Virus record (IMG/VR): IMGVR_UViG_3300011871_000052
Origin: an uncultured virus (IMG/VR IMGVR_UViG_3300011871_000052)
Lineage: Duplodnaviria > Heunggongvirae > Uroviricota > Caudoviricetes
Length of the DNA stretch: 20,000 nt
Direction: 5' to 3' (one strand)
Position numbers and translations under genes: made by a program. This document shows positions 4,200 through 20,000 of this stretch, in pieces. How positions within the stretch are numbered: position 1 is the first letter of the stretch; each line of letters starts with the position of its first letter. The notes beneath the pieces are model-generated. The model made no database searches and had not been told where the DNA came from. It saw only the letters and a program-made list of their open reading frames with translations.

Positions 4200-4330
4200 T
4201 GTACATAATCCTTATTAAAGTTTATAAAAAGATTATATAGAAATATTGAGTCTAAATAAAGAAAAAAGTTGTAACTCTAAGAAAAGTTTGTTATATTAAA
4301 GACCTTAACACATAAAGCCGAGGATATAAT

Positions 4331-4513
4331 ATGAGTAATTTTAAAGTAGTAACTGGGAAAGAAATGGCTTATCGTGTTTGGGATAAGTTGATGGGTGAGT
4401 ATGATAATAGCATTGTGGTAAATTCAGAAGGTTCGTTGATTAAACATAATGATGAAATGAATGGTGCTATTGTTGATAATGTTCAGCGATACGAAATTCA
4501 TAAATTTGAGTAA
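4331..4513 (+). CDS. small protein, possibly YopX-like N-terminal domain
   Basis: 60 aa with SD GAGGA, followed by a terminator. YRVWDK resembles the FRAWDK start of phage YopX proteins (weak). Confidence 0.6.
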   Translation: MSNFKVVTGKEMAYRVWDKLMGEYDNSIVVNSEGSLIKHNDEMNGAIVDNVQRYEIHKFE

Positions 4514-4519
4514 AAAAAG

Positions 4520-4541
4520 AAAAGCACCTCACGGTGCTTTT
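4520..4541. terminator. bidirectional Rho-independent terminator
   Basis: AAAAGCACC-TCAC-GGTGCTTTT with A/T runs on both sides, between convergent genes. Confidence 0.9.
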
Positions 4542-4542
4542 T

Positions 4543-4761
4543 TTATGCTTTTTCTAAATGAGATCTTTGCTCTTGAGCTTGGTTAGATTTCTTTAACTCT
4601 TTTACAACTTCATCTAACTTCTCATTTTGTATCTTGAGTTGTTTTAGAATCTCTTTCTGAACATTTTGCTCTTGTGGTGATAATGTTACTGGAGATGCTG
4701 CATAAGCAGTTGTTGATAAAAGTAAGGTACCTAATATAACGCTAACAATTGTTTTTCTCAT
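4543..4761 (-). CDS. small exported coiled-coil protein
   Basis: 72 aa. Sec signal peptide MRKTIVSVILGTLLLSTTAYA-A followed by a Q/K/E-rich heptad-like helix. SD GAGGA. Confidence 0.8.
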   Translation of the reverse strand: MRKTIVSVILGTLLLSTTAYAASPVTLSPQEQNVQKEILKQLKIQNEKLDEVVKELKKSNQAQEQRSHLEKA

Positions 4762-4837
4762 AATATATTCCTCAAATAATAATCATAAATAGAATAAATA
4801 TTATACTTAAAGGAATATAAATAATTCAATTAAATAG

Positions 4838-5441
4838 TTATCTGATTATCAAATCCCTACCATGAGTATATTTTGTATGAGGGTAAACAGGTTTAGCATT
4901 ATACCATTTATTAGTATTAAATGAGTTTTTTATCATTTCAAGATAGCTAGTTGCTGCTAAATCTCTTGTCTGATCAATAATTTTTTGTTTCTCAACATCT
5001 GAAACTTGATAAACTTGAGAAACCATTATTTTTCTATCAGCATTTAACATCTGATTAAGGAATACACATTGATAAAATGAAAGGCGTTGTTCAGAAGACT
5101 GNNNNNNNNNNNNNNNNNNNNNNNNNNNNNNNNNNNNNNNNNNNNNNNNNNNNNNNNNNNNNNNNNNNNNNNNNNNNNNNNNNNNNNNNNNNNNNNNNNN
5201 NNNNNNNNNNNNNNNNNNNNNNNNNNNNNNNNNNNNNNNNNNNNNNNNNNNNNNNNNNNNNNNNNTGTTCAGGGAATAAAGCAATATAAGCAGGGACTGC
5301 TGTATCACCAAAATGTTCTCCTGCTTTATTTATTTTTTGTTGAGATTTAACTGGAAGGTCTCCATTATTTGCAGTATTATTTCCTGCACATCCCGTAATT
5401 CCTATACTGATCAAAGCTATTGCGATAATACTTTTATTCAT
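4838..5441 (-). CDS. lipoprotein spanning the N gap (5102-5265)
   Basis: Start MNKSIIAIALISIGITG-C (lipobox) at 5441 with SD AAGGA. The reading frame resumes after the gap (QSSEQRLSF...DLIIR*) and ends at 4838. The two ORF-track pieces are probably one gene with a mis-sized gap. Confidence 0.65.
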
Positions 5442-5507
5442 AATCTTATTCCTTTTATATCGATTCATAAAGGAATATATACCTAATTTTTACGATTTTG
5501 GCAAATG

Positions 5508-5531
5508 AAAAAGGCGCTTAAGCGCCTTTTT
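5508..5531 (-). terminator. Rho-independent terminator (perfect palindrome)
   Basis: AAAAAGGCGCTTAAGCGCCTTTTT directly after the 5540 stop. Confidence 0.85.
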
Positions 5532-5539
5532 TAAGATTG

Positions 5540-6220
5540 TTACCGATATCTACGGGGTTTTAGAAGGTCTTGTTTATATTTTTCACCGATAGGCCCAAAA
5601 TAATGAGAAGCATGATCGCCGCCAGCACCATCATATCCTTCATTTTCACGATTATATTCACTATTATAGAAGAATACACCGCCCGTACCTCTGGTCCATT
5701 CTACTTTAGCAAATACCTTTTTAAAGGTTTTACCAAGAATATTAATCCAAGCCTGATCTACTGAATGGTTGTTTTCTTCAACACGCCAATTAAACTCTTT
5801 GGTATCAGGAGAAAAAGTAACGTAAGCTGCTGAATCACTGTATTCATTTTCAGATAATGATACATGCTTAAAAGATTTTTTAGTTGGTTTTACAATAGTC
5901 GTTTTTGTTTTACCATCAATAGTCTTTGTAGAAACTAAAGATTGAAAAATTTTATCGTAAGTTGTTTCATCTTCGTTTTTAAGTCTTTGCTGCAGAAAAT
6001 CATGAGCAATACAATATGCTGGGTTTCTAGAACCCTTATGAAGATCTTTATTTTTCTTAGTTTTAGCAACATATTCTTTCATAGGTTCATAAAGTGCTAC
6101 CGCTTTATTAAAACTTGTATCAAGCCAAGCATTATAAGATTCAGCAAACGCTCGACGAACACGAGAGAATTCTTTTGTAGATAGTTTGATTGTACCGTAT
6201 TCATATTCATAGCAAGACAT
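5540..6220 (-). CDS. hypothetical protein (basic C-terminal tail ...KPRRYR)
   Basis: 226 aa, SD GGAG, own terminator. Conserved-looking WRVEENNH and WTRGTGG motifs but no assignable function. Confidence 0.85.
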   Translation of the reverse strand: MSCYEYEYGTIKLSTKEFSRVRRAFAESYNAWLDTSFNKAVALYEPMKEYVAKTKKNKDLHKGSRNPAYCIAHDFLQQRLKNEDETTYDKIFQSLVSTKTIDGKTKTTIVKPTKKSFKHVSLSENEYSDSAAYVTFSPDTKEFNWRVEENNHSVDQAWINILGKTFKKVFAKVEWTRGTGGVFFYNSEYNRENEGYDGAGGDHASHYFGPIGEKYKQDLLKPRRYR

Positions 6221-6319
6221 ATCATTTCTCCAAGAAGGTAATCACATTTGATGAAAAGATTATAACATTTAGCCTTTTCTAACTCTAGCTTTTTTTGTAT
6301 TTTTATACATAAAAATAAA

Positions 6320-6348
6320 TTGACTTATAAAAAGAATAGTTATATTAT
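6320..6348 (+). promoter_or_regulatory. sigma70-like promoter
   Basis: TTGACT (6320-6325), 17-nt spacer, TATTAT (6343-6348). Confidence 0.75.
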
Positions 6349-6353
6349 ATGTG

Positions 6354-6480
6354 AGTATAACTTGCTAATCTCCGTAATAGCATAGTAATACAATATAGAC
6401 TCCTGTTTAGTAGTTGTTATAGTTATTAGTTATTTAGTTTTTGTGTAAGTTTAAAGCCTCCTTCGGGAGGCTTAGTTTTT
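6354..6480 (+). ncRNA. candidate small RNA (~125 nt)
   Basis: Bounded by the promoter above and a strong terminator, with no credible ORF. Two small hairpins present CUCC in or at the edge of their loops. Confidence 0.55.
6454..6480 (+). terminator. Rho-independent terminator with UUCG tetraloop
   Basis: AAGCCTCC-TTCG-GGAGGCTT followed by AGTTTTT. Confidence 0.9.
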
Positions 6481-6511
6481 GCATAAACAAATACAATAAT
6501 TTCAAAAAATC

Positions 6512-6540
6512 TAGACATGATAGTTCCTTATTGCTATAAT
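6512..6540 (+). promoter_or_regulatory. sigma70-like promoter (extended -10)
   Basis: TAGACA, 17-nt spacer ending in TGC, TATAAT, upstream of the 6571 start. Confidence 0.7.
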
Positions 6541-6570
6541 AAGAATATCAAATGTAAAAGAGGATTTAAC

Positions 6571-7563
6571 ATGAAATATTTAGGTTTCAAAACAGAGCAA
6601 GAGTTGCTAATTGTTAGAGGTCATCCCGGCAGTGGAAAAACAAAATTATCTAATGAATATGAATTAAACGGATATCAATCATTTGAAAATGATGCTTACT
6701 TTACAGATAGCAATGGTATATATAAGTTTGATTTAGCTAACCATCAAAAAGCAAAAGATGTATGTCTACAAAAAACTAAAAAAGCCTTAGATAAAGGGTT
6801 TAATGTCGTTGTAAGTAATACTTTTACTAAACTTTCGGAAATGGAACCTTTTATTAGTTATGCTAAAGAAAAAGGGATTCCTGTAAGAGTGATTGAAATG
6901 GAATTGAATTTTGAAAATGTTCACTCAGTTCCAGAACAAGTAGTTATAGATAAAAAGAATCAGTTTGAACCATTTGAAGGAGCAATAAGAGTCAATAATC
7001 CATGTTATAGAGTTGTTCCTGATGAAGATGTTGAAATTTTCCAATATCAATCTGATGTATCTTCTTATGATGGTACAGAAGAACTTCCAAAATATCATGT
7101 AGCAGATACATTAGGTAAGTTAAAAAAAGTTTTAAATCACATGAATGAACATATTCTTGATTTTCAAAAAACAGCGATGCATGAAGATAAGTTGCATTTA
7201 TTAGAATCAGATAAGGAAGATTACAAAAATTTAAAACAAGTATCTGATCTATTATCTGATGGTTATGTTGATGAAGCTCTAAAGAAAATAAAAAAACTTG
7301 ATACCTATGTAAAAGATGTTATTCCTTCTGATTTGGTTATCCTTTTAGGAGGTAATGTTTTTGATGAAAAACAAAACTCATCTCGTTTCAATGATATGAG
7401 TAACAAAGAGATAAAAGAAAGTTTTACAAATATATTAAAAGCGTATAAAGAAAACCCTGAGAAAGGGAAAGAATTGGATGCTGATTTTACTACTAAGTTT
7501 TTTGTCGATGCTGAGATGATGCTAAAATTTGAAGACACAAGAAAAAGAAGATTAGGTTATTAA
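6571..7563 (+). CDS. P-loop kinase (AAA_33 / polynucleotide-kinase-like) fused to an uncharacterised C-terminal domain
   Basis: Walker A GHPGSGKT, then END(AYF), VVVSNTF and the NVHSVPEQVV lid motif. Start moved to 6571 (SD GAGGA). About 190 extra C-terminal residues ending ...RKRRLGY. Confidence 0.8.
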   Translation: MKYLGFKTEQELLIVRGHPGSGKTKLSNEYELNGYQSFENDAYFTDSNGIYKFDLANHQKAKDVCLQKTKKALDKGFNVVVSNTFTKLSEMEPFISYAKEKGIPVRVIEMELNFENVHSVPEQVVIDKKNQFEPFEGAIRVNNPCYRVVPDEDVEIFQYQSDVSSYDGTEELPKYHVADTLGKLKKVLNHMNEHILDFQKTAMHEDKLHLLESDKEDYKNLKQVSDLLSDGYVDEALKKIKKLDTYVKDVIPSDLVILLGGNVFDEKQNSSRFNDMSNKEIKESFTNILKAYKENPEKGKELDADFTTKFFVDAEMMLKFEDTRKRRLGY

Positions 7564-7610
7564 ATATTTTGTAAATAAATCAAAAATATAAAATATGGAG
7601 TAATATTTTC

Positions 7611-7639
7611 TTGATTTTTTAAATTTAACAATCTATAAT
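7611..7639 (+). promoter_or_regulatory. sigma70-like promoter
   Basis: TTGATT, 17-nt spacer, TATAAT. Confidence 0.7.
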
Positions 7640-7697
7640 GAGTGTGTTGTAAAAGGTTGTCTATATTTTAATTTAATAACTAATAAGAGAGGTTTAT

Positions 7698-7811
7698 ATG
7701 TTCGGAGCATTAATAGTTGGTGGTATCGTAGGTGGTTTGGCTGTAGCATTCTTCCGTGATCATCCTACCGTTGTAAAAGTTCACGAAAAACTTAGATCAC
7801 TTGTATCTTAA
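7698..7811 (+). CDS. 37-aa single-pass membrane peptide (not in ORF track)
   Basis: MFGALIVGGIVGGLAVAFFRDHPTVVKVHEKLRSLVS*. Strong SD GAGAGG, own promoter and terminator. Confidence 0.8.
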   Translation: MFGALIVGGIVGGLAVAFFRDHPTVVKVHEKLRSLVS

Positions 7812-7827
7812 TTTTCGAAAGTTTTAA

Positions 7828-7849
7828 AAAAGCACCTTCGGGTGCTTTT
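7828..7849 (+). terminator. Rho-independent terminator with UUCG tetraloop
   Basis: AAAAGCACC-TTCG-GGTGCTTTT followed by ATTTT. Confidence 0.9.
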
Positions 7850-7901
7850 ATTTTGGCAAAAATATAGTATAAACAAAAAAGATTAAAACAAAGGATAAAA
7901 A

Positions 7902-8231
7902 ATGAAAAAAGATTTAGTGTATTTGCCAAAGAATAGTATATGTATTGAAATATCAAAAGAAGATTTGAATAAAGCGGTTGTTTTGCTAAATGGAGAGAAT
8001 ATTTTTGAAGCTCATTTTATTCATTATCTAAAAGATAGAATAGAAAATAAAATGTATAGATATAAGAGCACAAATGAGCACGAAGATTTTATTAAAGAAA
8101 TAAAAAGAGAAATACTAAATCAAGGTAAGACGTTTAACGTAATTTATTCTCAAGAAATTTTATCATTATTATATCCAGAAAAACCAAAAGAAGAAGAAAT
8201 AGATTTTGCATCTCTTGGTATGATAATGTAA
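7902..8231 (+). CDS. hypothetical protein
   Basis: 109 aa with SD AAGGA, ending at a bidirectional terminator. Confidence 0.7.
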   Translation: MKKDLVYLPKNSICIEISKEDLNKAVVLLNGENIFEAHFIHYLKDRIENKMYRYKSTNEHEDFIKEIKREILNQGKTFNVIYSQEILSLLYPEKPKEEEIDFASLGMIM

Positions 8232-8235
8232 AAAG

Positions 8236-8262
8236 AAAGGCTTAGTCAACTAAGCCTTTTTT
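8236..8262. terminator. bidirectional Rho-independent terminator
   Basis: AAAGGCTTAGT-CA-ACTAAGCCTTT inverted repeat between convergent genes. Confidence 0.85.
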
Positions 8263-8265
8263 ATT

Positions 8266-8958
8266 TTACGGTTTTACCTTGCGTCTTGGATTAGATGCCA
8301 TAAAAGCAGGTTTACATGGCTGCATAGGCTCTCCATTAGGCGTTGCTGTTTGAAGCCAATGTTTACTTTCAGGTTGAACATGTCCAGCACGAACAAACTT
8401 AGTAACAAACTTACTAAAATCTTTATATTCAAAAGCATCAGTAACACGGACAACAAAACCTTCCTCAATACTCTTATCTAGTGACTTAGATAGTTTTTTA
8501 AGGACCTCAACATCAAACTCACCACGATATAACTCTTTAGGTCTTGGAAGATCTAATGCTTCAGCATAAAAGTTTGTATCATCGACAGATAAGCAAGTAT
8601 CACCATTCCAAACTGAAAGAAGATATAGATAACCTTCTAAATATCCGTCAGGATAGTAGATTGAGTGTTTAGCATAAACGTTCTCACAACAAAGCCTATG
8701 GCCTTCGGGAATATCATGACGGATAACAGAGTGAATACGTTTAGCAACGTCTCTCGTCCAGTTATGGGCGCTATCAAGACTACGTGCATGCATTTGCTCA
8801 TCAGGATATAGTGTTGTGTTTTCGCCATCCATTTTCAAAGAAACAGAAACTTCTTTACCCATAAAACCCTCAAGGGATTCAATAAGTTTGTCATCAGATT
8901 GCAATGCTTCCGAGAAACTTAAATGATATGTTCTTGGGTACTTCTTTTTGATTTCCAT
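8266..8958 (-). CDS. ATP-dependent RNA ligase (stand-alone nucleotidyltransferase domain)
   Basis: KYPRTYHL N-terminus, motif I KMDGEN, ARS, CENVYAKHSI, motif IV EGFVVR and motif V KFVRAGHVQ..HW. Start at 8958 (SD GAGG). Confidence 0.9.
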   Translation of the reverse strand: MEIKKKYPRTYHLSFSEALQSDDKLIESLEGFMGKEVSVSLKMDGENTTLYPDEQMHARSLDSAHNWTRDVAKRIHSVIRHDIPEGHRLCCENVYAKHSIYYPDGYLEGYLYLLSVWNGDTCLSVDDTNFYAEALDLPRPKELYRGEFDVEVLKKLSKSLDKSIEEGFVVRVTDAFEYKDFSKFVTKFVRAGHVQPESKHWLQTATPNGEPMQPCKPAFMASNPRRKVKP

Positions 8959-8994
8959 AATAACCTCAATATTCAATAATGACTATATTTTAAC

Positions 8995-9108: not shown

Positions 9109-9678
9109 ATGAAGCTAATACATCAAAAAATTGTAAAAAAAGAAACATTTTATATAGAATCTGAAAGTGTGGATAAAAATAAAAATCACATAAAAAATCT
9201 TGAAGCATCAACAGTTTTAACACTAGAAGATGGACAGATTTTTAAAACATCAATAGATATTAAAGAAAAAGAGGGGCAAGAAATCGTTTTAATCGCTAAT
9301 AGTGATAATCAAATAGAATCATTATTAACATTAGAATTTGAAAATAAATTATTAGAAGATACAAAACCATCTGATATAGAGTTATTTCTTAAATTTTTAA
9401 TGCTTGTGATATTTTCATGTGCAACATTTTTACCTTTAGATAATGATAATCTTTCTATAATGTCTCGTATTGTGCTAATGGGAGGTATGTTTTTAGCGTT
9501 AATTTTTTGCTTTAAAATGTGGATTGAAGAGTTAGTAGATTTTAAAAAAGAGATAAAAATAAAAAAAGAACTTTTATCTTCAATAATAAGTTTTAAATCT
9601 AAACGAAAAAATATAAAAGCTCCTGATATTTGCAATATTGGCGAATCATTATCTAAAAATATTGTAGATGTTAAATAA
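9109..9678 (+). CDS. two-TM membrane protein, paralog array member 1
   Basis: Beta-rich N-domain, two hydrophobic helices, Lys-rich C-terminus. Aligns by eye with the 10277 protein. Confidence 0.8.
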   Translation: MKLIHQKIVKKETFYIESESVDKNKNHIKNLEASTVLTLEDGQIFKTSIDIKEKEGQEIVLIANSDNQIESLLTLEFENKLLEDTKPSDIELFLKFLMLVIFSCATFLPLDNDNLSIMSRIVLMGGMFLALIFCFKMWIEELVDFKKEIKIKKELLSSIISFKSKRKNIKAPDICNIGESLSKNIVDVK

Positions 9679-9687
9679 GAGGTAAAA

Positions 9688-10275
9688 ATGAAAAGACTAG
9701 TTAAAGGCGTTATCAATAATTTACTTGTTGAATACATAGAATGTATAGAAAATAGTTGTTATGATAGAAAAAAAACAGTAATAAGAAAAAAGACATCTTT
9801 TTTTATTAATAATGAAGAGTTTTTTACTTTAGATGATATTGAGATTATAGACGGGGGAATATATATATTTTATGCTGATAATGAAAATCAAATAGCATTA
9901 TTTGGCAAAGAACAGATAACAGAAGATTTAGAAATAACAAGTAAAAATAAAATAATTCAACAAAAGAAAGGAATAAAAGAGTCATATTTAATGATTTTTT
10001 TATCAGTGTTATTGTTTAGTATAATAGGTAATTTTATATATAATCACGATGAAAGTATTCCAATAGTGTTAATAATTCTAGCTTACATACCTTTAATATT
10101 ATCATTCTTATTATCTATAATAGGTTATTTAGTAATAATAGAAGAGAAAAAGAATTTAAAAGAAACAGAAGATAGTATTAAAAAACAAAAAGAAGAAATA
10201 CATAATTTTAATAATCAAACAGCAGATATTATATTACTGAAAGAAAAAGATATTTTAATTAAAAATGAGGTTTAA
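9688..10275 (+). CDS. two-TM membrane protein, paralog array member 2
   Basis: MKRLVKGVI start, two TM helices, coiled-coil C-terminus. SD GAGG. Confidence 0.8.
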   Translation: MKRLVKGVINNLLVEYIECIENSCYDRKKTVIRKKTSFFINNEEFFTLDDIEIIDGGIYIFYADNENQIALFGKEQITEDLEITSKNKIIQQKKGIKESYLMIFLSVLLFSIIGNFIYNHDESIPIVLIILAYIPLILSFLLSIIGYLVIIEEKKNLKETEDSIKKQKEEIHNFNNQTADIILLKEKDILIKNEV

Positions 10276-10276
10276 A

Positions 10277-10819
10277 ATGAAATTAGTAAAAGAAATAATA
10301 GATAAAAAAGAAATATACTTAGAAGAGATTGTTGAAAAAGACGATTATGGCAATCTGATAAAAACATTTAAACCTCAAACTAGAATAACATTGAAAAATG
10401 GAGAAATATACAATTTTGATATTGATATTCCACAAATGGAAAATCAAGAAATTGCTTTCGTAAGCAATTATGAGAATAATAAAAATTCTTTATTAACTAA
10501 CGAGTTTAAGAAAGATTTTATAAAAAAATATGAAAAAATGCCAACTATGAAAGAAATTATATTATTTTACGGTTGTCCATTTTTGGTAGTTTCAATTTTA
10601 AGTATGATATTCGGTTTAATACTGCATAATTTTGCCTTATCAGTTACTATTCCATTAGCATCCATAACAGCTAGCATTTTCTTATTATATTTTATAAAAA
10701 ATGAAGAAAAAAATATGGAACAATATAAAGAGGAAATAAAAAAGATATTGTCACTAATAAAAGAAAATAATAACGAAAAAATTACGGTAAAAGAAAAAAG
10801 TGAAGTTATAGTAAGTTAA
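10277..10819 (+). CDS. two-TM membrane protein, paralog array member 3
   Basis: Start moved to 10277 (MKLVKEII, SD GAGG). TRITLKNG..IDI..ENQEI..N..N..SLLT.EF matches member 1. Confidence 0.8.
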   Translation: MKLVKEIIDKKEIYLEEIVEKDDYGNLIKTFKPQTRITLKNGEIYNFDIDIPQMENQEIAFVSNYENNKNSLLTNEFKKDFIKKYEKMPTMKEIILFYGCPFLVVSILSMIFGLILHNFALSVTIPLASITASIFLLYFIKNEEKNMEQYKEEIKKILSLIKENNNEKITVKEKSEVIVS

Positions 10820-10898
10820 AATACGATTTGTTTTAAAATAATACATGTGTTATGATGGTTCATTATAAATACTATTTAAAAAATATAAGAGAGGCTTT

Positions 10899-11129
10899 AT
10901 GGATATGGATTTAGGTTTCGAAATAACAACTGATGATATAATAATTGTTGCTACCCAATTTGGTAAGCAGCTTACTCTTGAGCAAGCAAATAGTATATTT
11001 GATATATTAGATATTGATCATGCTATAGATATTGCCTTAAAAGAAGATACAAAGGTATTACAGAAACAAGCAGCCTATAGAGATCTGAAAGAACAAATGA
11101 TTGAAACATCTGTTTTAGATACTTTTTAA
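10899..11129 (+). CDS. small acidic hypothetical protein
   Basis: 76 aa, Asp/Glu-rich, SD GAGAGG. Unrelated to the flanking paralogs. Confidence 0.75.
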   Translation: MDMDLGFEITTDDIIIVATQFGKQLTLEQANSIFDILDIDHAIDIALKEDTKVLQKQAAYRDLKEQMIETSVLDTF

Positions 11130-11147
11130 TAAGAATAAGAGGTTATT

Positions 11148-11678
11148 ATGGAATTAGTAAAGGGTGTGGTAAAAAAAATAGATTCTGCAATAATTGAAGA
11201 AAAAGAAATAGATGAATATCTCCAACATTCTAAATCATTATTAAAAACAAGAAATACCATTACAATGGATAATGGCGATACACTCTATGCAGATTGCGAT
11301 CTTGATTTTAAGGAAGGTGATTATATAGGTTTTGTTGTCTCTGGTAATGATGAAAGGGAAGTAAAATATTTTATTAATCAAAACAATGCTGAAAAAATAA
11401 AAGAAAAGAGAAAATTTAGTTGGATGGATAAGTTTAATTTATGTGCTCAATTTTTCTTTATATATATGTCTGTAAGTAATATAAGCAAAGATTTAAATTT
11501 AGGTATATCTTATTTATTGTTATTAATGTCAGTAATCTTGATTGGTTTAAATTGTTATTTATTTTTCCGTAATAGAAAAGAAAGAAAAAACATAGATGAT
11601 TATTTAAACTCTATACCATTTGAAAAAAAAGAAAGTCATATTCACTTAGTTAAAGATTATCAGCATACAAATGTATAA
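11148..11678 (+). CDS. two-TM membrane protein, paralog array member 4
   Basis: MELVKGVVKKI...NTITMDNG...KEGDYIGFV, two TM helices. SD GAGG. Confidence 0.8.
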   Translation: MELVKGVVKKIDSAIIEEKEIDEYLQHSKSLLKTRNTITMDNGDTLYADCDLDFKEGDYIGFVVSGNDEREVKYFINQNNAEKIKEKRKFSWMDKFNLCAQFFFIYMSVSNISKDLNLGISYLLLLMSVILIGLNCYLFFRNRKERKNIDDYLNSIPFEKKESHIHLVKDYQHTNV

Positions 11679-12183
11679 TACAATAATTAGTGGTAAGATA
11701 AAAAATATTGAGACTATTTTTTCTGAGAAAGAAAATAGTTCCACTCAAGTATATTCACTAATATCGCTAAACGATAATAAAAATTATAAAATTAAAGGAA
11801 TAATCAAAGGATTCAGTAAAGGCGGCAATATATATTTAGTAAAGAGAAATAAGTATGCTAAATTTTATGATGTTATTAATAAAAAAACATTAAAAATAAT
11901 GAAATTAGAAAGATTTATGTTTGGATCTATGGGAATAACCTGTGCGATAGGTCCGATATTAGTATTATATAATCTATTGATATATAAGATGGCATATCTA
12001 TCATACCTCGTAAATGTAGGTGTTGATATGCTATTTCCTTTATTAGTTTTAACTTTTATGCCTATATTCTTTTTAGTTAACCTGCCAAGTAATAAAACTA
12101 TAAGAGAAGCTAAAAATATTATAAATAAAGATGAAAGCTATGATATTAAAATAAATAAAGTCTATGATAAGGAAAGAAGATGA
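11671..12183 (+). CDS. two-TM membrane protein, paralog array member 5
   Basis: IISGKIKNIE...YKIKG...KGGNIYLVK and NLPSNKTIR. Overlaps the previous stop by 8 nt. Confidence 0.75.
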   Translation: MYNTIISGKIKNIETIFSEKENSSTQVYSLISLNDNKNYKIKGIIKGFSKGGNIYLVKRNKYAKFYDVINKKTLKIMKLERFMFGSMGITCAIGPILVLYNLLIYKMAYLSYLVNVGVDMLFPLLVLTFMPIFFLVNLPSNKTIREAKNIINKDESYDIKINKVYDKERR

Positions 12184-12746
12184 GTAATAAAATAATATCT
12201 GGACAAATTGAAAATATTGAATCCACTATTATAGGAAAGTCTGATCCTGATGATTATAATGTTGATATACAAACTTTCATCTATTTGAAGCATAATAAAA
12301 AATATAAAGTAAAAGGAAAAGTAAAAGACTTAAAAAAAGGAGATATAATATCATTAATAAAAGAAGATGAAGTATTATTTAATTATAATAATAAAGTAGA
12401 AAACTATTTAATTATAACGCCAAAAACAATAAAAAAGATGAAGAGAAAAAGATTATATTTAATACTAGCTTCATTTTTAACGGGAATCTATCCTATTAGT
12501 TATAGTATAACCTATTTAATAGATTTATTTTTATACTCTGGAAATAGCATGTCATACTTTATAGAAACAAAAAATATAGTAATAGTTTTATATACGTTTT
12601 TTATGATGTTTGCATTCTTGATATCTAGCATTGTTATTTTATTAAATATACCATCGAAAAAAATAATAAGGCAAGTCAATGATATAATAAAAGAAGAAGA
12701 TTCATTAAAAACTATAAAAGAAAAAAACTTACAAAAAGTTAGTTAA
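12180..12746 (+). CDS. two-TM membrane protein, paralog array member 6
   Basis: IISGQIENIE...YKVKG...KGDIISLIK and NIPSKKIIR. ATGA overlap with member 5. Confidence 0.8.
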   Translation: MSNKIISGQIENIESTIIGKSDPDDYNVDIQTFIYLKHNKKYKVKGKVKDLKKGDIISLIKEDEVLFNYNNKVENYLIITPKTIKKMKRKRLYLILASFLTGIYPISYSITYLIDLFLYSGNSMSYFIETKNIVIVLYTFFMMFAFLISSIVILLNIPSKKIIRQVNDIIKEEDSLKTIKEKNLQKVS

Positions 12747-13287
12747 AAATATAAGGAAGAAGCCTAGCAATATTTCTTACATCATCAATACCACGATGAG
12801 GAACACCAATAAACTTCATTTTATTCTGACCTAACGCTTTTCTAACGCCTACCTTCTTTTGAAGCTTGTTTTTAATGACATATTCAGCACTAAGATTAAT
12901 ATGTTCAAGTTTTAAGAAGGGGAATGATGTTTCACTAAGCTTATTATTTCTAATATCTTTACGAATCTGATTTGCATCAAATCCTCCCCAAGAACCCCAC
13001 TGATTAACATTTTCATTAAATAAAAAGTCATCAAGTTCAGTAAATGCTTTTTCAAGAGAAATGCCGTTATTAACTTGTTCTTGTGTTATAGATGTCAATG
13101 AAGTGCAGAAAGGTGTAAGAGTTGGATGTATAATAGGTTTAATAAAACAGTTAAACTCATTATAAGTATTACCGTTTAAATCAGCAATAACGCAGCCAAT
13201 TTCGATAATTTCCATTTCATGTCGGGGGATTATTTTACCTGTATCATCACAAGTACATTCTAAATCTATAATAGCTATTTTATCCAT
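12739..13287 (-). CDS. DEDDh 3'-5' exonuclease (ERI-1/KapD-like)
   Basis: ExoI IDLECT, EIIEIG, FIKP..HPTLTPFCTSLTSITQEQV, SWGGFD and ExoIII HRGIDD. Start at 13287 (MDKIAII, SD AAGGA). Confidence 0.92.
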   Translation of the reverse strand: MDKIAIIDLECTCDDTGKIIPRHEMEIIEIGCVIADLNGNTYNEFNCFIKPIIHPTLTPFCTSLTSITQEQVNNGISLEKAFTELDDFLFNENVNQWGSWGGFDANQIRKDIRNNKLSETSFPFLKLEHINLSAEYVIKNKLQKKVGVRKALGQNKMKFIGVPHRGIDDVRNIARLLPYIFN

Positions 13288-13384
13288 TTTATTTATATCC
13301 TTTTTTATTGTTATTTGTTTTATATTTTTCATGGCGCGATTTTATATAATTTAAAAATGAAAATCAAAGATTAAAAAGGAATAA

Positions 13385-13408
13385 AAAAACCTGCCGGAGC
13401 AGGTTTTT
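13385..13408 (-). terminator. Rho-independent terminator
   Basis: AAAAACCTGC-CGGA-GCAGGTTTTT downstream of the 13428 stop. Confidence 0.85.
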
Positions 13409-13427
13409 GATATAAGATATATGTGTC

Positions 13428-14249
13428 TTAAAATTTAGTGCGAGGTCTTTGATATTCATAGCCTTGCTGACTGTTAACATCAAGGCCAAGTCTTTCACTT
13501 TCAACTTTTCTTTCATTACGACGAACATAAAGATCATCCATAAATCCATCAATAGAGTGAGCGATATCTTTAGCAAGAGTTTTAGGATCTTTAGGCATTT
13601 GACCTTCAGTAAATAAAGAATATTTTTTAATAGCTTTACCAAGTTTTTCGTATTTTTCTTCAGCACTTAACCCAAATGCACCAGATTTTAAACCCGTCAT
13701 GAATTTTTCTTGTTCAGCAGAAATTTCATCATGAGAAAGACCTTCTTTTTGTCCTTTTTTATTAATAAATTCCATATGTTCTGCTGCATCATTCATCAAA
13801 ATACCATTAGCATAGCTGCTGATATTGTCACGGAATGCTTTATTCATATTAGCTTGAATAAAATCTTTGTAGTTATCATTTACACCAAGTTTAATTGATT
13901 GACCTACTTCAAGATTGCCTGTTACTTCTGCGACTCTTTCATTAGCATTTTCAATTGCGTTATGACGCAAATCATAACCAACTTCAAATTCAGCTTTAGG
14001 ATGATAGATGCTATCGGTAAGGTTACTAGCAGCATCAATAATTTTATCAAGCTCTACAACATTGAAGTTTGTTGTTTGAAGAAGAGAAATGAGAGGGTTT
14101 AAATTGTTATCGTAAACACGTCTATCACATACTACTCCATGAATACAGTCTTGCTGAATATCAACAAGTTTAACAATAACACCACTGTTAAGGCTATTAA
14201 GAAGTTCTACTGCTTGATCTACTTTATATTGTGTTGGTTCAGTTGCCAT
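13428..14249 (-). CDS. hypothetical protein with relaxase-like basic C-terminal tail (...QQGYEYQRPRTKF)
   Basis: 273-aa ORF, SD AAGGGA, own terminator. No catalytic motif recognised. Confidence 0.85.
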   Translation of the reverse strand: MATEPTQYKVDQAVELLNSLNSGVIVKLVDIQQDCIHGVVCDRRVYDNNLNPLISLLQTTNFNVVELDKIIDAASNLTDSIYHPKAEFEVGYDLRHNAIENANERVAEVTGNLEVGQSIKLGVNDNYKDFIQANMNKAFRDNISSYANGILMNDAAEHMEFINKKGQKEGLSHDEISAEQEKFMTGLKSGAFGLSAEEKYEKLGKAIKKYSLFTEGQMPKDPKTLAKDIAHSIDGFMDDLYVRRNERKVESERLGLDVNSQQGYEYQRPRTKF

Positions 14250-14345
14250 AATTATATGTTCCCTTTTAGTTTTAACATTATATATCTATTATAAAAAGTA
14301 AAAGGGAATAAGACAAGCATATTTGATATAAAATATCGAAATATT

Positions 14346-14747
14346 TTAAATATAAACTTTTCGACAATGTTCAAGCATTTCTCTCGCCATATTAGCGAAA
14401 GGAACATCATCTAGTTTATCCATAGAAATAATAGAAACTTCTTCTTCTGTTAAAGATTTTGCGTCTGATAAAGTTGAGAATGGAACAATAGATGTTAAAA
14501 TAGAAACATAATAATATTCGTTATCAGAATAAGAGCCAACTTCTGCCCAAAAATCAGGGGGTATATCTAATCCTGTTTCTTCTTTGACTTCCCTACTTAC
14601 ACAAGCAGCAGCATCAATATCAAATTCTTCAAATTTTCCACCAATACCATTAAATAAGCCAGCCTGATCAGCAGGTTTTGTTTTCTTAATTAATAATACA
14701 TTTTTAAAATCATCACTAAATATAAAACCTACTGTATATTTTTTCAT
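14346..14747 (-). CDS. Nudix hydrolase
   Basis: Nudix box GGKFEEFDIDAAACVSREVKEETGL. N-terminal YTVGFIFS...VLLIKK.KP..QAG..NGIGGK. Confidence 0.92.
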   Translation of the reverse strand: MKKYTVGFIFSDDFKNVLLIKKTKPADQAGLFNGIGGKFEEFDIDAAACVSREVKEETGLDIPPDFWAEVGSYSDNEYYYVSILTSIVPFSTLSDAKSLTEEEVSIISMDKLDDVPFANMAREMLEHCRKVYI

Positions 14748-14760
14748 GTTGTTCTCCAGA

Positions 14761-15210
14761 TTACTTATTAATACTTATGATATCACAAACAGGTGAACTG
14801 CTTATATCTATCATAGGAAATTTTACTTTTTGATTACCATGTTTATAAGTGACTAATTTAATTTCATCATGTTTATCCCAATCAGAAGGAACACAATCCT
14901 CTTTTCCATTAAAAGCGATGGCATAACCTTTGTTCGTTTGAATATAAATAATATCTTTACTATCTGTTTGATTATGTGTTACATAGCCAATGTTGATTTG
15001 GCTTTTCTGAATATTTAAAGAAGGGTAAACCAGACCGAAAGTGAAAAAAATAACAGATAATACACCAATAAAAAAGGGAATCAAGAGCAATGATGAATAG
15101 ATATAATTTTTTCTTTTTGCATTTCTAAATATAGAAACAATAATAAAAATAACCATTATAATGCTGAAAGTGAGTAAGCCTATAGCAATATTATCTAAAG
15201 AAAAGTTCAT
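14761..15210 (-). CDS. membrane protein with two N-terminal TM helices and a small exported domain
   Basis: Two hydrophobic segments flanking RNAKRK, then a beta-rich C-domain with two Cys. SD CAGGA. Confidence 0.75.
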   Translation of the reverse strand: MNFSLDNIAIGLLTFSIIMVIFIIVSIFRNAKRKNYIYSSLLLIPFFIGVLSVIFFTFGLVYPSLNIQKSQINIGYVTHNQTDSKDIIYIQTNKGYAIAFNGKEDCVPSDWDKHDEIKLVTYKHGNQKVKFPMIDISSSPVCDIISINK

Positions 15211-15281
15211 ATTTTAATCCTGTTTAAACATAGTTGATTAATAATATACTATGTTTTGTTTGATTTCAAAACAAAAGCTAA

Positions 15282-15773
15282 TTAAACTGCGAAAGTATTA
15301 TAAATATATTGAAAATGCTTGATTCTATCAATAACATAAGTAATATTTTCTTCTGATAATTCTGTTTGCTTTAAAACACAATAATAAAACTCATCAGAAA
15401 ATACATCTAAATCTCTATTATTAGGTATAGATTTTGAAAGGAGATCATTGACTACATCAGGTTGAGTATCAAAAATAATTATTGCTTCATCAAGGAGTTT
15501 TGTAGTAGCAACAGAGAAGTTATCATAAGCATATTCAGTTTCAAAGAATACTTCTTCAAGTGGAGTGCTGCTCTGTAATACTTCATCAAGAGAAAGAACC
15601 ATAATCTTATTATTTTTTATGTAGTATTCAGAATCAGTTAAAGAATCCTGAAAACGTTGAAGTTTGAGAATTTCAGAAAACACAATAAAATCATTAAGAC
15701 GTTCTTTATTTTTAATGCCAGAGGTGTTTTTAATAAAATAAAGCCCTAAATCAAGTATTATGTCAGTTCTCAT
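15282..15773 (-). CDS. hypothetical protein, possibly a divergent Panacea/DUF4065 (SocA-like) domain
   Basis: Start moved to 15773 (SD GAGGA). LYFIKNTSG...RLNDFIVFSEIL.L.RF..SLTDSEY resembles the DUF4065 N-terminal pattern, but the GPV motif is absent. Confidence 0.6.
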   Translation of the reverse strand: MRTDIILDLGLYFIKNTSGIKNKERLNDFIVFSEILKLQRFQDSLTDSEYYIKNNKIMVLSLDEVLQSSTPLEEVFFETEYAYDNFSVATTKLLDEAIIIFDTQPDVVNDLLSKSIPNNRDLDVFSDEFYYCVLKQTELSEENITYVIDRIKHFQYIYNTFAV

Positions 15774-15796
15774 ATTTTTATCCTCAGTAAAATTGA

Positions 15797-15892
15797 TAAA
15801 GACCAAATAGGACGGGTCCAATTCCCGGCGCATCGGTCTTTAAAAAGAACCTCTCTTAATGAGCATTATTAAGAGGCCAGAGAGGTGTAGTT
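15797..15892 (-). promoter_or_regulatory. structured 5' leader / small RNA upstream of the 15773 gene
   Basis: Hairpin ACCTCTCT/AGAGAGGT (15849-15886) followed by TCTTTTT on the minus strand, then stem TAAAGACC/GGTCTTTA (15797-15842) enclosing CGGG-7nt-CCCG. Confidence 0.45.
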
Positions 15893-15898
15893 GCTTTG

Positions 15899-15927
15899 AT
15901 AATAACAATGAATGGTATTATTGTCAA
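15899..15927 (-). promoter_or_regulatory. near-consensus sigma70 promoter
   Basis: Minus strand TTGACA, 17-nt spacer ending TGT, TATTAT. Confidence 0.75.
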
Positions 15928-15935
15928 AATATTTA

Positions 15936-16063
15936 TGGTGGCAGGAAAACCACTTAAGGTGTCGAGCTATACTGTCCTGTCAGCATCATAAGCTCCAATC
16001 TCAACTTGAGTTCATCCTAATAAGGATTACTTTAGCGCATTAACGTCTTGCCACCACAAGACG
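15936..16063. ncRNA. candidate structured RNA (multibranch, ~120-130 nt)
   Basis: 11-bp closing stem TGGTGGCAGGA/TCTTGCCACCA enclosing 3-4 hairpins, plus a competing hairpin CGTCTTG-CCACCA-CAAGACG. Clearly richer in G+C than the flanks. Strand unresolved. Confidence 0.55.
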
Positions 16064-16113
16064 AAATAAAAGCCCACTAACATTAAATAACATTGCATGT
16101 GTCATTGTGAATG

Positions 16114-16142
16114 ATTATAATGTATTATAGACTAAAATACAA
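16114..16142 (-). promoter_or_regulatory. sigma70-like promoter pointing into the structured element
   Basis: Minus strand TTGTAT, 17-nt spacer, TATAAT. Confidence 0.55.
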
Positions 16143-16149
16143 CATAATT

Positions 16150-16386
16150 TTAAACACATTCTAACACAGCTTCCCATTTGAGGGTCTCACCTAAATAAGA
16201 TTTTTCCCTTCTAATCTGTTTAGGTGTAGGTCGAGCACTATAAGGTCTAGATTTCTTATCCAAGATCATTTCAGCAACAGGCGGCTCATATATATCTACA
16301 CGAGCATTATAAACAGTATATTCAGCCTTTACATACCAAAAACCTTTACGATAAATTACTTTAAAACCTAACTTAGGATCTGACAT
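16150..16386 (-). CDS. small basic hypothetical protein
   Basis: 78 aa with SD AAGGA, directly downstream of the methyltransferase. Confidence 0.7.
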   Translation of the reverse strand: MSDPKLGFKVIYRKGFWYVKAEYTVYNARVDIYEPPVAEMILDKKSRPYSARPTPKQIRREKSYLGETLKWEAVLECV

Positions 16387-16402
16387 TAAATTTCCTTAAT
16401 AA

Positions 16403-18022
16403 TTATTTTTCAATTCTTACAACAACAACAGAAACACCAGTTCCAGCAAATAAGTCCTTCATTGAATCTGAGTATTCATGTTTTGCCCCTTTTATAATCT
16501 GTTTGTTTTTAAATGATCCCGGAAGAATAGCAACTAATACTCCATTATTATTTAACAGGGAGAAAGCCATTTTAGTATGAAGTTCTGCACGACCATCACT
16601 AAATGGAGGATTCATAACAACTCTATCAAATCGCTCACTAGTTTTTGATGCCCATTGAACAAAATCATCATTAATAACCTGATTGAAGCCTTTGTTTTTT
16701 AAAATTTCTGTATTTAGTTTCGAAATCTCAACACATGTAGTTTGTTCAATTGGTAAAAACTTAGCAATACCTCCCTGACCAGCACTTGGCTCCAAGCACT
16801 TATGATCATCATCAATATCAGCCCAATCAACAACAAACTCTGCTAAAGGTGCCGGAGTAGGGTAATATTGGAATGTTTTAATATCTGGTAGATTGCCAGA
16901 TAAAACAATTTCTTGAATTACTTTTTTAATGTCATAATCAAATTCATACCAAACAGCCATATTGATTTGCTTACGTTCACCACCTAAGAATTCCAATATC
17001 TTATATACTTCCTTACTATCACTATCGCTCATAGTAGAAGGCACTCGTAAACTATTTTCATTATCTGTCCATCCACGATACTCTCTAAATCTATTACTTT
17101 CATTTCGGATAAGTGGAGGTTTATCAAGTGAGTTTAACCCTTTTATAATATTAAATGGTAATGTATGTAAATTTAATTCATATTTTTTGTCTTTATTTCT
17201 TATAGCTTCTTTGCGATCTCTATTTTTTTGAGGAATAGCAGTCGGATAAAGATGCGACAAAATAATATTAAGTTCTAAAGCAATATCAGGATGAACCTCA
17301 AGATGAACTGTTCCTTTTTTAAATGCTTTTATTTTAATGGCATTACCATCAAGAGAAATCCACTTACCAGAGTTATTGTAAGCATGGGCAAGTATGCTAT
17401 ATGTTGTTCCGTAGTCATATTCGCCACGTTTCATAATTCGCCCAACAACATCTCTCAAATCATCAATATAACCTTTTTGTTTATAATCAGGGGAATTATT
17501 GCCACTAAATACACCACCCATAATCATTCTTTTATAGAAACCTTCTGGACAATTAGTAACATGAACTTTAGAAAGGTTATTGAAAACGCCATCAACTTTT
17601 TCAGCGATAAAATCTGCACGAGAGTTTAGCAGAGACATAACAGTAGCTCTCACATTCTCTTGATTAAATTCAGGAGTTTGATGATTAGCTATTTGCTCAT
17701 CCCATTCTTCTCGTCGTTTTTGAGGCATTAGTTTTCTAACATCTGTTAGCGTTAAAATACTATCCCAATATTTGTCATTTAGATCTTGAATAGCACCTTC
17801 TTTTTTGAAAAGAACTTCTGGTGAAATAGAACGATAAATACTATCTTTACTAGAATTACCATTAACGAAGTAATGAAAAACGGTTGAGAGTTCTCGAATT
17901 AGATTATCTGAAACACTCACAATTTTATTTTTATCATACTCATATCGTGCAATAACGTTATCAATTAAATCAACCGAAACGGGAGAAAAAAATTGATTAA
18001 CAGTAATATCATCAATATCCAT
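16403..18022 (-). CDS. DUF4942-type protein with C-terminal SAM-dependent (amino) DNA methyltransferase domain
   Basis: FQYYPTP, motif I LEPSAGQG, CVEI, motif IV VVMNPPF and GVLVAILP. N-terminal LS..H.TN.PEGF and FKKGTVHL motifs are typical of this mobile-element family. Confidence 0.88.
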   Translation of the reverse strand: MDIDDITVNQFFSPVSVDLIDNVIARYEYDKNKIVSVSDNLIRELSTVFHYFVNGNSSKDSIYRSISPEVLFKKEGAIQDLNDKYWDSILTLTDVRKLMPQKRREEWDEQIANHQTPEFNQENVRATVMSLLNSRADFIAEKVDGVFNNLSKVHVTNCPEGFYKRMIMGGVFSGNNSPDYKQKGYIDDLRDVVGRIMKRGEYDYGTTYSILAHAYNNSGKWISLDGNAIKIKAFKKGTVHLEVHPDIALELNIILSHLYPTAIPQKNRDRKEAIRNKDKKYELNLHTLPFNIIKGLNSLDKPPLIRNESNRFREYRGWTDNENSLRVPSTMSDSDSKEVYKILEFLGGERKQINMAVWYEFDYDIKKVIQEIVLSGNLPDIKTFQYYPTPAPLAEFVVDWADIDDDHKCLEPSAGQGGIAKFLPIEQTTCVEISKLNTEILKNKGFNQVINDDFVQWASKTSERFDRVVMNPPFSDGRAELHTKMAFSLLNNNGVLVAILPGSFKNKQIIKGAKHEYSDSMKDLFAGTGVSVVVVRIEK

Positions 18023-18584: not shown

Positions 18585-20000
18585 TTATTGGTTATTAGCA
18601 AATAATGTTATCTTTTCAGGGTCTTGATAACCAGAAGGCATGTTCACTACATACTCGCCTTTAACAACATCAACCTCTGGAGGCTTCCTGTATGCTTCAA
18701 AATACTTATATCCGGGTTGTAGTTGTTTCCAGAAAGCATAATGAGGAGAATTTTTATGTGAATTAAGGTTTTCATCTGTCATTCTAAAAGGGAAAATATC
18801 AATATTAATTGTTCTTTGTCCGTTTTTGAAAGAAGCTTGAACAAACTGATAAATTTCTTTAATATAATCATTTGTCATAGCATAACATCCAATAGATTGG
18901 CATCCACCATGTATCATAAGATATTTTCCAGTATAACCATGACTTCTATCAAAAGCGTTAGGGAAACCAATATTGATTGCTTTATAATAGCTACTGTTAG
19001 GCTGTAAGCTATTTAAGTTTGCTCTATAGAACCCTTCTGGACTTTTGTTATCTCCTGAATATTTTTTAGGACCTAAACCACCATTATAAGTACATATATT
19101 ATAAACGTTAGCAAGATAATATTTTTCTCCCTGTTTTAAATACATTTCAAGAGAATGATCTTCTTTAAATATACGTATATAAACATCTGATCCTAATAAT
19201 TTCTTATCTACCTTATCACCTCTAATTGCATGAGGTATGTATTGCCTTTTAGGTAAAGTTTCAGGAATAGGGATTAAAGAAATTTTATCTTTTTGTTTTT
19301 TATTTATTTCATCTTTTAATAAAACTTTAGGTTGCTGAACACTATTTATAGGAGCATCTTTTTTACTGGATTGAGTTACAGAAGGTGCTGGTAATAATTT
19401 AGTATCTTTTGCTTTCTGTTTTGCTTCTTCTTTATCAGCCTTGCTTGAACTTGTATTATATTGAGCAAAGAAATTACTAATATTGCTTTCTAAATTAGCA
19501 TCTTTATTATTATTAACTTTTAACTGATTATCATTTGTTTTATTATAATCAAAAAAATCATCTACATATTGCTCTGGTGTTTGATTATTGCTAATTTCTT
19601 TTTTAATGGGTTTAGGCTTTTCTGTTTTTTTCTGAGTTTTTAAATATTCATCATAATCAACCATTTTAGCAACTGGTGTATTATCTTCAAAAGCAGAAGG
19701 TAATCTTATTTTTTTCTTTTCTTTTGGAATAGTTTCAGGAATAGGTTCAAGGACAATCTTATTATATTTAGGATCGTCAATTGGTTTAGTATCAATTTGA
19801 ATAGATGTAGATAAAGGAGGAGTAACCGTCTTTTTTATTGGTGTTGAAACATCTATTTTAGGTGTAATTTTAGTTTCTATTTTTTGTGGAGGATTTGAAG
19901 GTGCGTCAGTCTCAAAAAGATCTTCATTATACGCATAACAATTACCCGCAAAAAAAGAAACAACAAGCGATAAGCTAATAACTGTTTTTTTAAATTTCAT
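18585..20000 (-). CDS. dpaA: exported YkuD-family (L,D-transpeptidase fold) protein, YafK/DpaA-like, with a long low-complexity N-terminal extension
   Basis: Signal peptide MKFKKTVISLSLVVSFFAGNCYA. The C-terminal ~200 aa carry YIRIFKE, GDNKSPEGFY, YYKAINIGFPNAFDR.HGY.GKYLMIHG.C.SIGCYAMT, FPFRMT and FWKQLQPGY, as recalled for enterobacterial YafK. The ATG lies at the window edge. Confidence 0.88.
   Translation of the reverse strand: MKFKKTVISLSLVVSFFAGNCYAYNEDLFETDAPSNPPQKIETKITPKIDVSTPIKKTVTPPLSTSIQIDTKPIDDPKYNKIVLEPIPETIPKEKKKIRLPSAFEDNTPVAKMVDYDEYLKTQKKTEKPKPIKKEISNNQTPEQYVDDFFDYNKTNDNQLKVNNNKDANLESNISNFFAQYNTSSSKADKEEAKQKAKDTKLLPAPSVTQSSKKDAPINSVQQPKVLLKDEINKKQKDKISLIPIPETLPKRQYIPHAIRGDKVDKKLLGSDVYIRIFKEDHSLEMYLKQGEKYYLANVYNICTYNGGLGPKKYSGDNKSPEGFYRANLNSLQPNSSYYKAINIGFPNAFDRSHGYTGKYLMIHGGCQSIGCYAMTNDYIKEIYQFVQASFKNGQRTINIDIFPFRMTDENLNSHKNSPHYAFWKQLQPGYKYFEAYRKPPEVDVVKGEYVVNMPSGYQDPEKITLFANNQ

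Follow-up and report, generated by a model that had tools for sequence, protein, structure and literature searches.

A candidate double-pseudoknot RNA on an AT-rich, megaplasmid-like stretch of DNA

What is the short GC-enriched segment that lies between AT-rich flanks in the 20,000-nt stretch of DNA analysed here (hereafter the window), and what might it do for the replicon that carries it? A sequence-only reading had described it as a GC-enriched RNA outside the known classes, and both points held. The proposed mature small RNA (the element; Table 1) has a GC content of 44.5%, against 28.1% for the window and 21% and 23% for the adjoining flanks. Rfam 15 returned no family over it at an E-value of 5 (20 kb searched) or 10 (391 nt searched), whether tRNA, tmRNA, 5S, 6S, SRP or any other. 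We found no description of this RNA in the literature searched, which lay mostly outside subscription journals. Our leading interpretation, to which we give a probability of about 0.35, is by analogy a stable, trans-acting, protein-binding decoy RNA of a pMEGA-like megaplasmid.

All nine sequence stretches quoted in the sequence-only reading were found at their coordinates. The closing stem (15936-15946 with 16046-16056) has 11 bp with one G-U on the plus strand, and the 7-bp hairpin at 16044-16063 is present, with a loop CCACCA complementary to 15936-15941. The hairpins at 15951-15961, 15964-15995, 16000-16010 and 16014-16027 are present as well, but the first and third are marginal. Comparison of the folding energy with shuffled controls, a check which that reading had proposed, gave a z-score of -3.17 on the plus strand (0 of 200 shuffles equally good) and -2.23 on the minus strand (6 of 200). 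Scores below -3.1 were reached by 10 of 304 128-nt tiles of the window (20 shuffles each), one of which overlaps the element, so the element is not exceptional on folding energy alone. Covariation provides stronger backing for its structure.

Table 1. Features of the element and its surroundings (RNA features read on the minus strand).
Feature	Coordinates	Strand	Description
Element, proposed mature small RNA	15936..16063	- (probable)	128 nt, between AT-rich flanks
H1	16044..16063	-	7-bp hairpin; its 6-nt loop (16056-16051) could pair with the final 6 nt of the RNA
Linker	16028..16043	-	Single-stranded in the fold
H2	16014..16027	-	4-5 bp hairpin with variable loop; pair probability 0.99
H3	16000..16010	-	Marginal 3-4 bp hairpin; pair probability 0.21-0.28
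H4	15964..15995	-	5-bp and 6-bp stem, 4-nt bulge, 6-nt loop 15980-15975
H5	15949..15961	-	Marginal 3-bp hairpin or linker
3' tail	15936..15946	-	11 nt, ends CCACCA; complementary to H4 and H1 loops
Sigma-70-like promoter, predicted	16114..16142	-	TTGTAT, 17 nt, TATAAT
Leader (RNA A)	16064..16106	-	Terminator-like hairpin, decayed in the window
Leaderless ORF	16105-16040	-	21 codons, begins in RNA A; equal length in L133/L134
Second promoter, predicted	15899..15927	-	TTGACA, 17 nt, TATTAT, with TG
RNA B	15849..15885	-	abiF-type hairpin, then U tract; behind promoter 15899..15927
RNA C	15798..15841	-	Stem with internal loop and 4-bp/7-nt hairpin
163-aa helical protein	15282..15773	-	13 homologs; downstream of RNA C

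Two variants, X17 and X19, were judged pair by pair from a table of their differences. X19 is a 261-nt contig from an RNA-library run that covers window positions 15819-16074 at about 92% identity, with 20 differences and two gaps; 19 of the 20 differences were covered, as were six of the seven in X17. Within the element, X19 carries 14 listed substitutions and one insertion. In the inner stem of H4, the pairs 15972/15983 and 15973/15982 change on both sides and stay Watson-Crick, and a change at 15971 turns an A-C mismatch (G-U on the minus strand, pair 15984/15971) into G-C. A third compensatory double change, from A-U to G-C, lies at 15943/15978 in the helix that we call pseudoknot 2. The covariation check suggested earlier from the letters has therefore been run and gives three compensatory double changes, all in X19. 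With the 14 substitutions placed at random, at least two compensatory pairs would be expected with a chance of 0.007 among the 38 pairs of the sequence-only scheme. For three in a 38-pair model with two pseudoknots the figure is 0.0002, one of these being recognised only after the data had been seen; for a single compensatory change in any helix of at least 5 bp it is 0.11. Every compensatory substitution in the element comes from this one assembled contig, and the adjacent double changes in H4 could be a single template-switch event. The stems of the element are real, and selection probably acts on its structure. Against this, changes are as dense in the element (15/128) as in the adjoining spacer (6/43; p = 0.79), while positions 15819-15892 show no changes over 74 nt in X19.

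Read on the minus strand, the 11-nt tail is exactly complementary to two loop stretches in succession, the 6 nt of the H1 loop and then 5 nt of the H4 loop. Positions 15941-15936 would pair with the H1 loop (pseudoknot 1) and 15946-15942 with 15975-15979 in the H4 loop (pseudoknot 2). Because the tail complements both loops exactly, a continuous helix with two loops, that is a double pseudoknot, is possible. The long-range pseudoknot of the sequence-only reading finds some support in the compensatory changes of a relative. Its pairing scheme overlooked the second loop-to-tail pairing (15975-15979/15942-15946), where one of the three compensatory changes falls; the element has just five Watson-Crick helices of at least 5 bp, this one included. 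A chance of 2e-5 for the two-loop match was set aside, since the element had been picked for that complementarity. Pseudoknot 1 is invariant across X17 (up to 16062) and X19. H1 as a whole is conserved but without covariation, having no listed difference in X19, nor in X17 up to 16062. On the letters and their variants, we lean towards both pseudoknots forming.

The remaining parts tolerate change to different degrees. The linker differs at a single position (16034), in X17 and X19 alike, and the H5 region shows no listed change in either. In X17, H2 has two changes and one deletion and keeps a 4-bp stem. In X19, closing pairs are opened by the change at 16018 in H2 and by that at 16003 in H3, where it breaks the innermost pair. 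Small ORFs inside the element carry several non-synonymous changes in X19.

Relatives of the locus give the element its edges. A search with the downstream protein returned four metagenome loci (L131-L134), two of which (L131 and L132) match the window letter for letter over the element. The other two (L133 and L134) are syntenic with the window, with proteins of 40-44% identity, and keep 16064-16106/16120 and 15798-15892, with 21 unrelated nucleotides where the element sits. The X17 contig keeps 15318-16062 and has 490 other letters in place of 16063-16412. As X17 is kept up to 16062 and L133/L134 from 16064, two independent lineages break at the outer edge of H1, and the element is a module with a sharp boundary at 16062/16064. 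The homolog search proposed in the sequence-only reading thus found near-identical and about 92% identical relatives, but the diverged L133 and L134 lack the element.

Near-identical DNA was present in 19 of the 23 runs listed, 18 of them with at least half of the words, from wastewater, gut, biofilm, soil and isolate-sized data sets. Protein clusters from both flanks occur on contigs that reach 1.34 and 1.37 Mb, and one member of each cluster comes from a Shigella flexneri assembly. Relatives of the flanking proteins, at 58-66% identity, also occur side by side on contigs of 18-175 kb. From size and GC we infer that the window is part of a replicon of about 1.3 Mb that is AT-rich and resembles the clade-2 pMEGA megaplasmids of Enterobacteriaceae, of which pMEGA2 has 1.33 Mb and 29.4% GC (10.1101/2025.09.30.679422). 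RNA peaks of pMEGAs are highest in intergenic regions (10.1101/2025.09.30.679422).

Searches outside this circle brought little. BLAST of the region hit four phage and three plasmid records, all in short pieces at chance level; 14 kb of the window had no plasmid match, and 3.7 kb had none in complete E. coli genomes. Flanking-protein searches gave no viral loci and none of the 401 genomes searched around G092. A covariance model of the element, R1, found nothing in L133/L134, in 151 genomes or in four further records; R1 was built on two identical sequences, so these misses weigh little. Several candidates were rejected: the only nhmmer match (L001) among at least 121 viral pattern loci lacks the inner stems and resembles coding sequence, eight genome pattern matches all have interiors unrelated to the element, and in four viral 17-mer matches the likeness is confined to that word (three of the alignments are identical). 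Two stricter structure patterns gave no viral match.

The rest of the window has features of its own. A metallophosphoesterase, a kinase-like AAA ATPase, an RNA ligase, a DEDDh exonuclease and a NUDIX protein are encoded at 3369-8976 and 12739-14747, and may, judging from their predicted domains, form an RNA-repair and nucleotide-cleaning set. Six predicted membrane proteins of similar size, without Pfam matches and partly duplicated in their DNA, are encoded on the plus strand at 9109-12746. On the minus strand, a DUF4942 methyltransferase (16403-18022) and a YkuD/DpaA-like peptidoglycan enzyme (18585-20000) are syntenic in L134. L131 carries at 10505-12207 an IscB gene with a HEARO RNA (123 bits), an insertion at about position 11316 of the window that the window itself lacks.

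From which strand would the element be read? In a pseudoknot-free model the plus strand gives the closing stem a probability of 0.99 and H1 one of 0.01, whereas for the minus strand these values are 0.32 and 0.68. The tail would thus be buried on the plus strand, and H1 is open for pseudoknots on the minus strand and not on the plus, which favours the minus strand. These values also weaken the two-state switch of the sequence-only reading, since on the plus strand the rival hairpin is hardly populated. Both of its promoter boxes are present, but the minus-strand -35 box matches only three of six consensus positions and is for this reason absent from the consensus-scan list. The spacing of this promoter and its position before AATGAC are equal in L133 and L134; it is replaced in X17, which still keeps the element. 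On the plus strand, the TG of the extended -10 is lost in X19.

Downstream of the minus-strand promoter, the energy of the RNA A hairpin and U tract is only -2.3 kcal/mol in the window but -11.9 in L133/L134; little follows the hairpin in L133/L134, and the element follows it in the window. The 21-codon ORF 16040-16105 keeps its length in L133/L134 although its last seven codons are unrelated. The second promoter matches 11 of 12 consensus positions, is the top of 16 sites in the scan and is retained in L133/L134. The scan found no terminator-like site in 15200-16500, and no ORF starts immediately after the element on the minus strand. In favour of the plus strand, the X19 changes at 15943 and 15997 yield G-U pairs there, and X17 is without the minus-strand promoter. 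With a conserved promoter, a decayed terminator and reachable pseudoknots, we consider the minus strand the probable one, judging from these sequence features.

That the element acts as RNA rather than as DNA is likely in our view. The diverged X19 strain is represented by two contigs in 3.7 kb, one being the 261-nt contig over the element and RNA B, whose depth is 22 as compared with 6-12 for the other three contigs. A stand-alone contig of this kind is a weak hint of a discrete transcript; contigs give no strand, ends or level. In the RNA runs X15, X17 and X18 the element lies inside longer contigs, as DNA carry-over would also yield.

The element has small-RNA neighbours. RNA B aligns with all 37 positions of the abiF RNA model RF03085 at 23.1 bits (E = 0.075), below the gathering threshold of 37, and shows the stem-bulge-stem layout and the conserved loop of that family. 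With L133/L134 it keeps 10 of 10 pairs, three of them compensatory, and 18 nt of its loop recur identically in the 59.4-bit abiF RNA of L153. RNA C keeps 15 of 15 pairs across the window, L133 and L134, two of them compensatory. Together, the two RNAs keep 25 of 25 pairs with five double-sided changes, a result equalled by 5 of 500 shuffles, a fraction that for three related sequences should not be read as a probability. Read on the plus strand, the loop of RNA C resembles a T-loop.

The abiF RNA neutralises a HEPN toxin in trans (10.1101/2025.04.15.648962; PMC12737573), and RNA B is a possible orphan antitoxin mimic. There was no Abi_2 match among the 26 Pfam-scanned ORFs of the 46 listed for the window. 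The RNA B loop motif occurs in two of the 401 genomes searched around G092, both times in abiF RNAs above the cut-off (L152:1493-1529, 56.7 bits; L153:1488-1524, 59.4 bits); one adjoins prophage tRNAs and a holin, the other a Gp49/HTH pair. Among the nine listed ORFs of at least 90 aa beside these two RNAs, five of them domain-scanned, none was AbiF-like. The loop (19 nt identical) was also seen at L150:1501-1517, right after a tRNA on a 261-kb viral contig, in a GC-rich structured stretch that ends with a U tract.

The 163-aa protein downstream of RNA C had no Pfam, PHROG or PADLOC match. SocA_Panacea occurs in only 15-17% of the members of its feature look-alikes, and its predicted fold (pLDDT 62, best Z 4.5) is uninformative. 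In relatives, a DUF4325 STAS-like gene (L134:5672-6001) lies between RNA C and the 163-aa gene.

L133 and L134 have a different RNA just upstream of the element's slot. This unnamed RNA of about 125 nt (L134:5220-5345) is common to the megaplasmid relative and a KVP40-like Vibrio phage (L159:1456-1584), where it matches an unannotated gap in a tRNA cluster; none of 2000 shuffles was as good, and Rfam had no match to it in L133/L134. Read by eye, its loop-to-downstream pairing differs between the two by two compensatory changes. It resembles the element in its neighbouring slot of the same locus, 5' hairpin, UUAA linker and loop pairing downstream. An alignment suggested homology of the two, but this was not supported (65 of 2000 shuffles as good, one of eight tests), and R2, a model of the L134/Vibrio-phage RNA, gave no minus-strand match to the element.

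How does the element compare with RNAs of known toxin-antitoxin and plasmid systems? The tandem repeats of 34-50 nt of type III antitoxins were absent from the 20 largest repeat families of the window. Where a toxin gene would follow such repeats, the downstream protein has no family match, and among the pseudoknots one compensatory pair was found for pseudoknot 2 and none for pseudoknot 1. Phage PhiTE encodes pseudo-ToxI, a phage mimic of a type III antitoxin RNA (PMC3475682). The element is like ToxI and pseudo-ToxI as a small, putatively pseudoknotted RNA on a mobile element with no cognate toxin adjoining, a likeness in the proposed way of working only. It differs as a single 128-nt unit without tandem repeats, with two candidate pseudoknots and without an Rfam match. 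The 37-nt layout and loop of the abiF RNA (RF03085; RCd22, 10.1101/2025.04.15.648962) resemble RNA B and not the element, and even RNA B differs, scoring below gathering and having no AbiF gene among the scanned ORFs of the window. The three plasmid-associated RNA motifs described in PMC5737381 have 223-349 nt and are longer than the element. A retron msr-msd RNA would have a reverse transcriptase gene beside it, but the flanking ORFs contain no RT domain.

We propose the following explanation. Transcription of the minus strand would start at the promoter at 16142-16114 and read through the RNA A terminator, decayed in the window lineage; trimming at the AU-rich flanks would leave an RNA of about 16063-15936. 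This RNA would begin with H1, and its last 11 nt would thread the H4 and H1 loops, so that no end is free for nucleases. AU-rich flanks, a 5' hairpin and a hidden 3' end fit a stable RNA that is excised from a longer transcript. The alternative folds overlap neither a terminator nor a ribosome site, unlike those of a riboswitch or attenuator; together with the non-synonymous changes in the small ORFs, this makes it most likely that the element acts in trans, by its shape. The compact fold would bind a protein as a decoy, as antitoxin-mimic RNAs do, and may blunt a host abortive-infection or anti-plasmid nuclease. The toxin-less abiF-type RNA, the phage-shared RNA in relatives and the pseudo-ToxI precedent make a decoy the best guess, though a doubtful one drawn by analogy: the role rests on the neighbourhood, and no partner protein was found. 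In pMEGA4, protein antitoxins occur without toxins (10.1101/2025.09.30.679422).

An unlikely alternative, the first to be weighed, is a tRNA-like RNA with a free CCA end, which would decoy tRNA-cutting defences or be acted on by CCA or aminoacylation enzymes, and which is comparable to T4 RNAs C and D. It could take the form of a plus-strand acceptor (15940-15946/16046-16052) with ACCA or of a minus-strand RNA with a pseudoknotted acceptor helix. Either strand indeed offers a stem with ACCA behind it; for the plus strand the sequence-only reading had pointed to an acceptor-stem mimic. On the plus strand, the 7-bp stem with NCCA has one G-U and tolerates the X19 change as a G-U; on the minus strand it has one mismatch, two in X19. 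The window also encodes an RNA ligase and a kinase-like ATPase, and pMEGAs carry up to 208 tRNAs (10.1101/2025.09.30.679422). However, the likeness to tRNA and tmRNA ends with the stem and ACCA: the element has no D, T or anticodon arm, no tRNA-like domain with a T arm and tag frame, and no match to RF00005 or the tRNA clan, the plus-strand TG is lost in X19, and ARAGORN found no tRNA or tmRNA gene in the window. Moreover, the CCA is paired in either fold unless the UGGU strand is cut away. T4 rnaC and rnaD, whose function is given as unknown (PMC9697503), resemble the element as RNAs of 119-139 nt from a mobile element, and rnaD, a stable 119-nt RNA, has a CCA-like end that the next genome A completes. 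Unlike the element they lie in a tRNA cluster, and they show no sequence or model similarity to it.

Rather improbable is a single-stranded DNA element or the remnant of a small mobile cassette, in which template switching in quasi-palindromes would have produced the compensations. The block-like presence or absence with a sharp edge, an imperfect terminal inverted repeat and the movement of IS200/IS605-type elements nearby (IscB and HEARO RNA in L131) would suit it. Against it, one copy of the element was seen in the 20 kb, where a MITE or non-autonomous IS200/IS605 element may have several, no target duplication is visible, and there is no plasmid or phage match; the G-U to G-C exchange suits RNA, and other small RNAs flank the element.

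A cis-acting switch is likewise improbable. A ribosome on the 21-codon ORF would melt H1, shift the folds and tune read-through to RNA B and the 163-aa gene. The ORF spans the whole of H1 with its length retained in L133/L134, and the two folds are near balance on the minus strand (0.68 against 0.32). Yet neither within the element nor right behind it is there a terminator or ribosome site, a separate predicted promoter (11/12) precedes the downstream unit, X17 retains the element but not the opening part of the ORF, and past codon 14 the lineages share no homology in the ORF.

Equally improbable is a self-cleaving or processing ribozyme that would free the cluster's small RNAs. Small ribozymes typically contain double pseudoknots, and the compact two-pseudoknot fold with nearly unchanged linkers would agree with this. 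The models of hammerhead, HDV-like, twister, pistol, hatchet and glmS ribozymes gave no match, even at an E-value of 10 on 391 nt, although large insertions could hide one. The strand order of the element appears unlike the HDV-like, pistol or twister layouts, and the X19 contig spans both ends of the element.

Less credible still is an antisense or base-pairing sRNA, whose loops UGGUGG and ACAGGA would seed on other RNAs with its own tail as an internal blocker. The UGGN bulge of T-boxes pairs with tRNA ends, and CCACCA is a common tRNA end; the H1 loop is complementary to CCACCA ends and is the same in X17 and X19. The H4 loop, however, varies together with the tail, which points to pairing in cis. 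A structure owed to chance is far-fetched.

The decoy reading can be extended, though we think it unlikely, to the whole locus as a cassette of interchangeable anti-defence RNAs that includes a double-pseudoknot class releasing its CCA tail. Its parts would be the orphan abiF mimic, the hairpin RNA with the T-loop-like loop and an exchangeable slot, occupied by the double-pseudoknot RNA or alternatively by the RNA also found in KVP40-like phages. The element would then be the first RNA class to lock an 11-nt CCA tail in two loops, and the tail might be freed as a tRNA-end decoy or sensor once a host defence is triggered.

The element is probably an unclassified RNA on a newly described class of megaplasmids, with a narrow distribution and thin covariation. 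The description of pMEGA megaplasmids dates from 2025; its main text mentions tRNAs as the only non-coding RNAs and has no wording on ncRNA, non-coding, tmRNA, sRNA, ribozyme or riboswitch (10.1101/2025.09.30.679422). The locus offers three short, precisely bounded RNA candidates for in vitro transcription and tests in laboratory E. coli. The capture of an 11-nt tail by two loops would be an unusual compact RNA fold, whose structure is worth determining. If these RNAs are decoys, plasmids would silence host suicide systems with arrays of RNA mimics, so far known from few phages.
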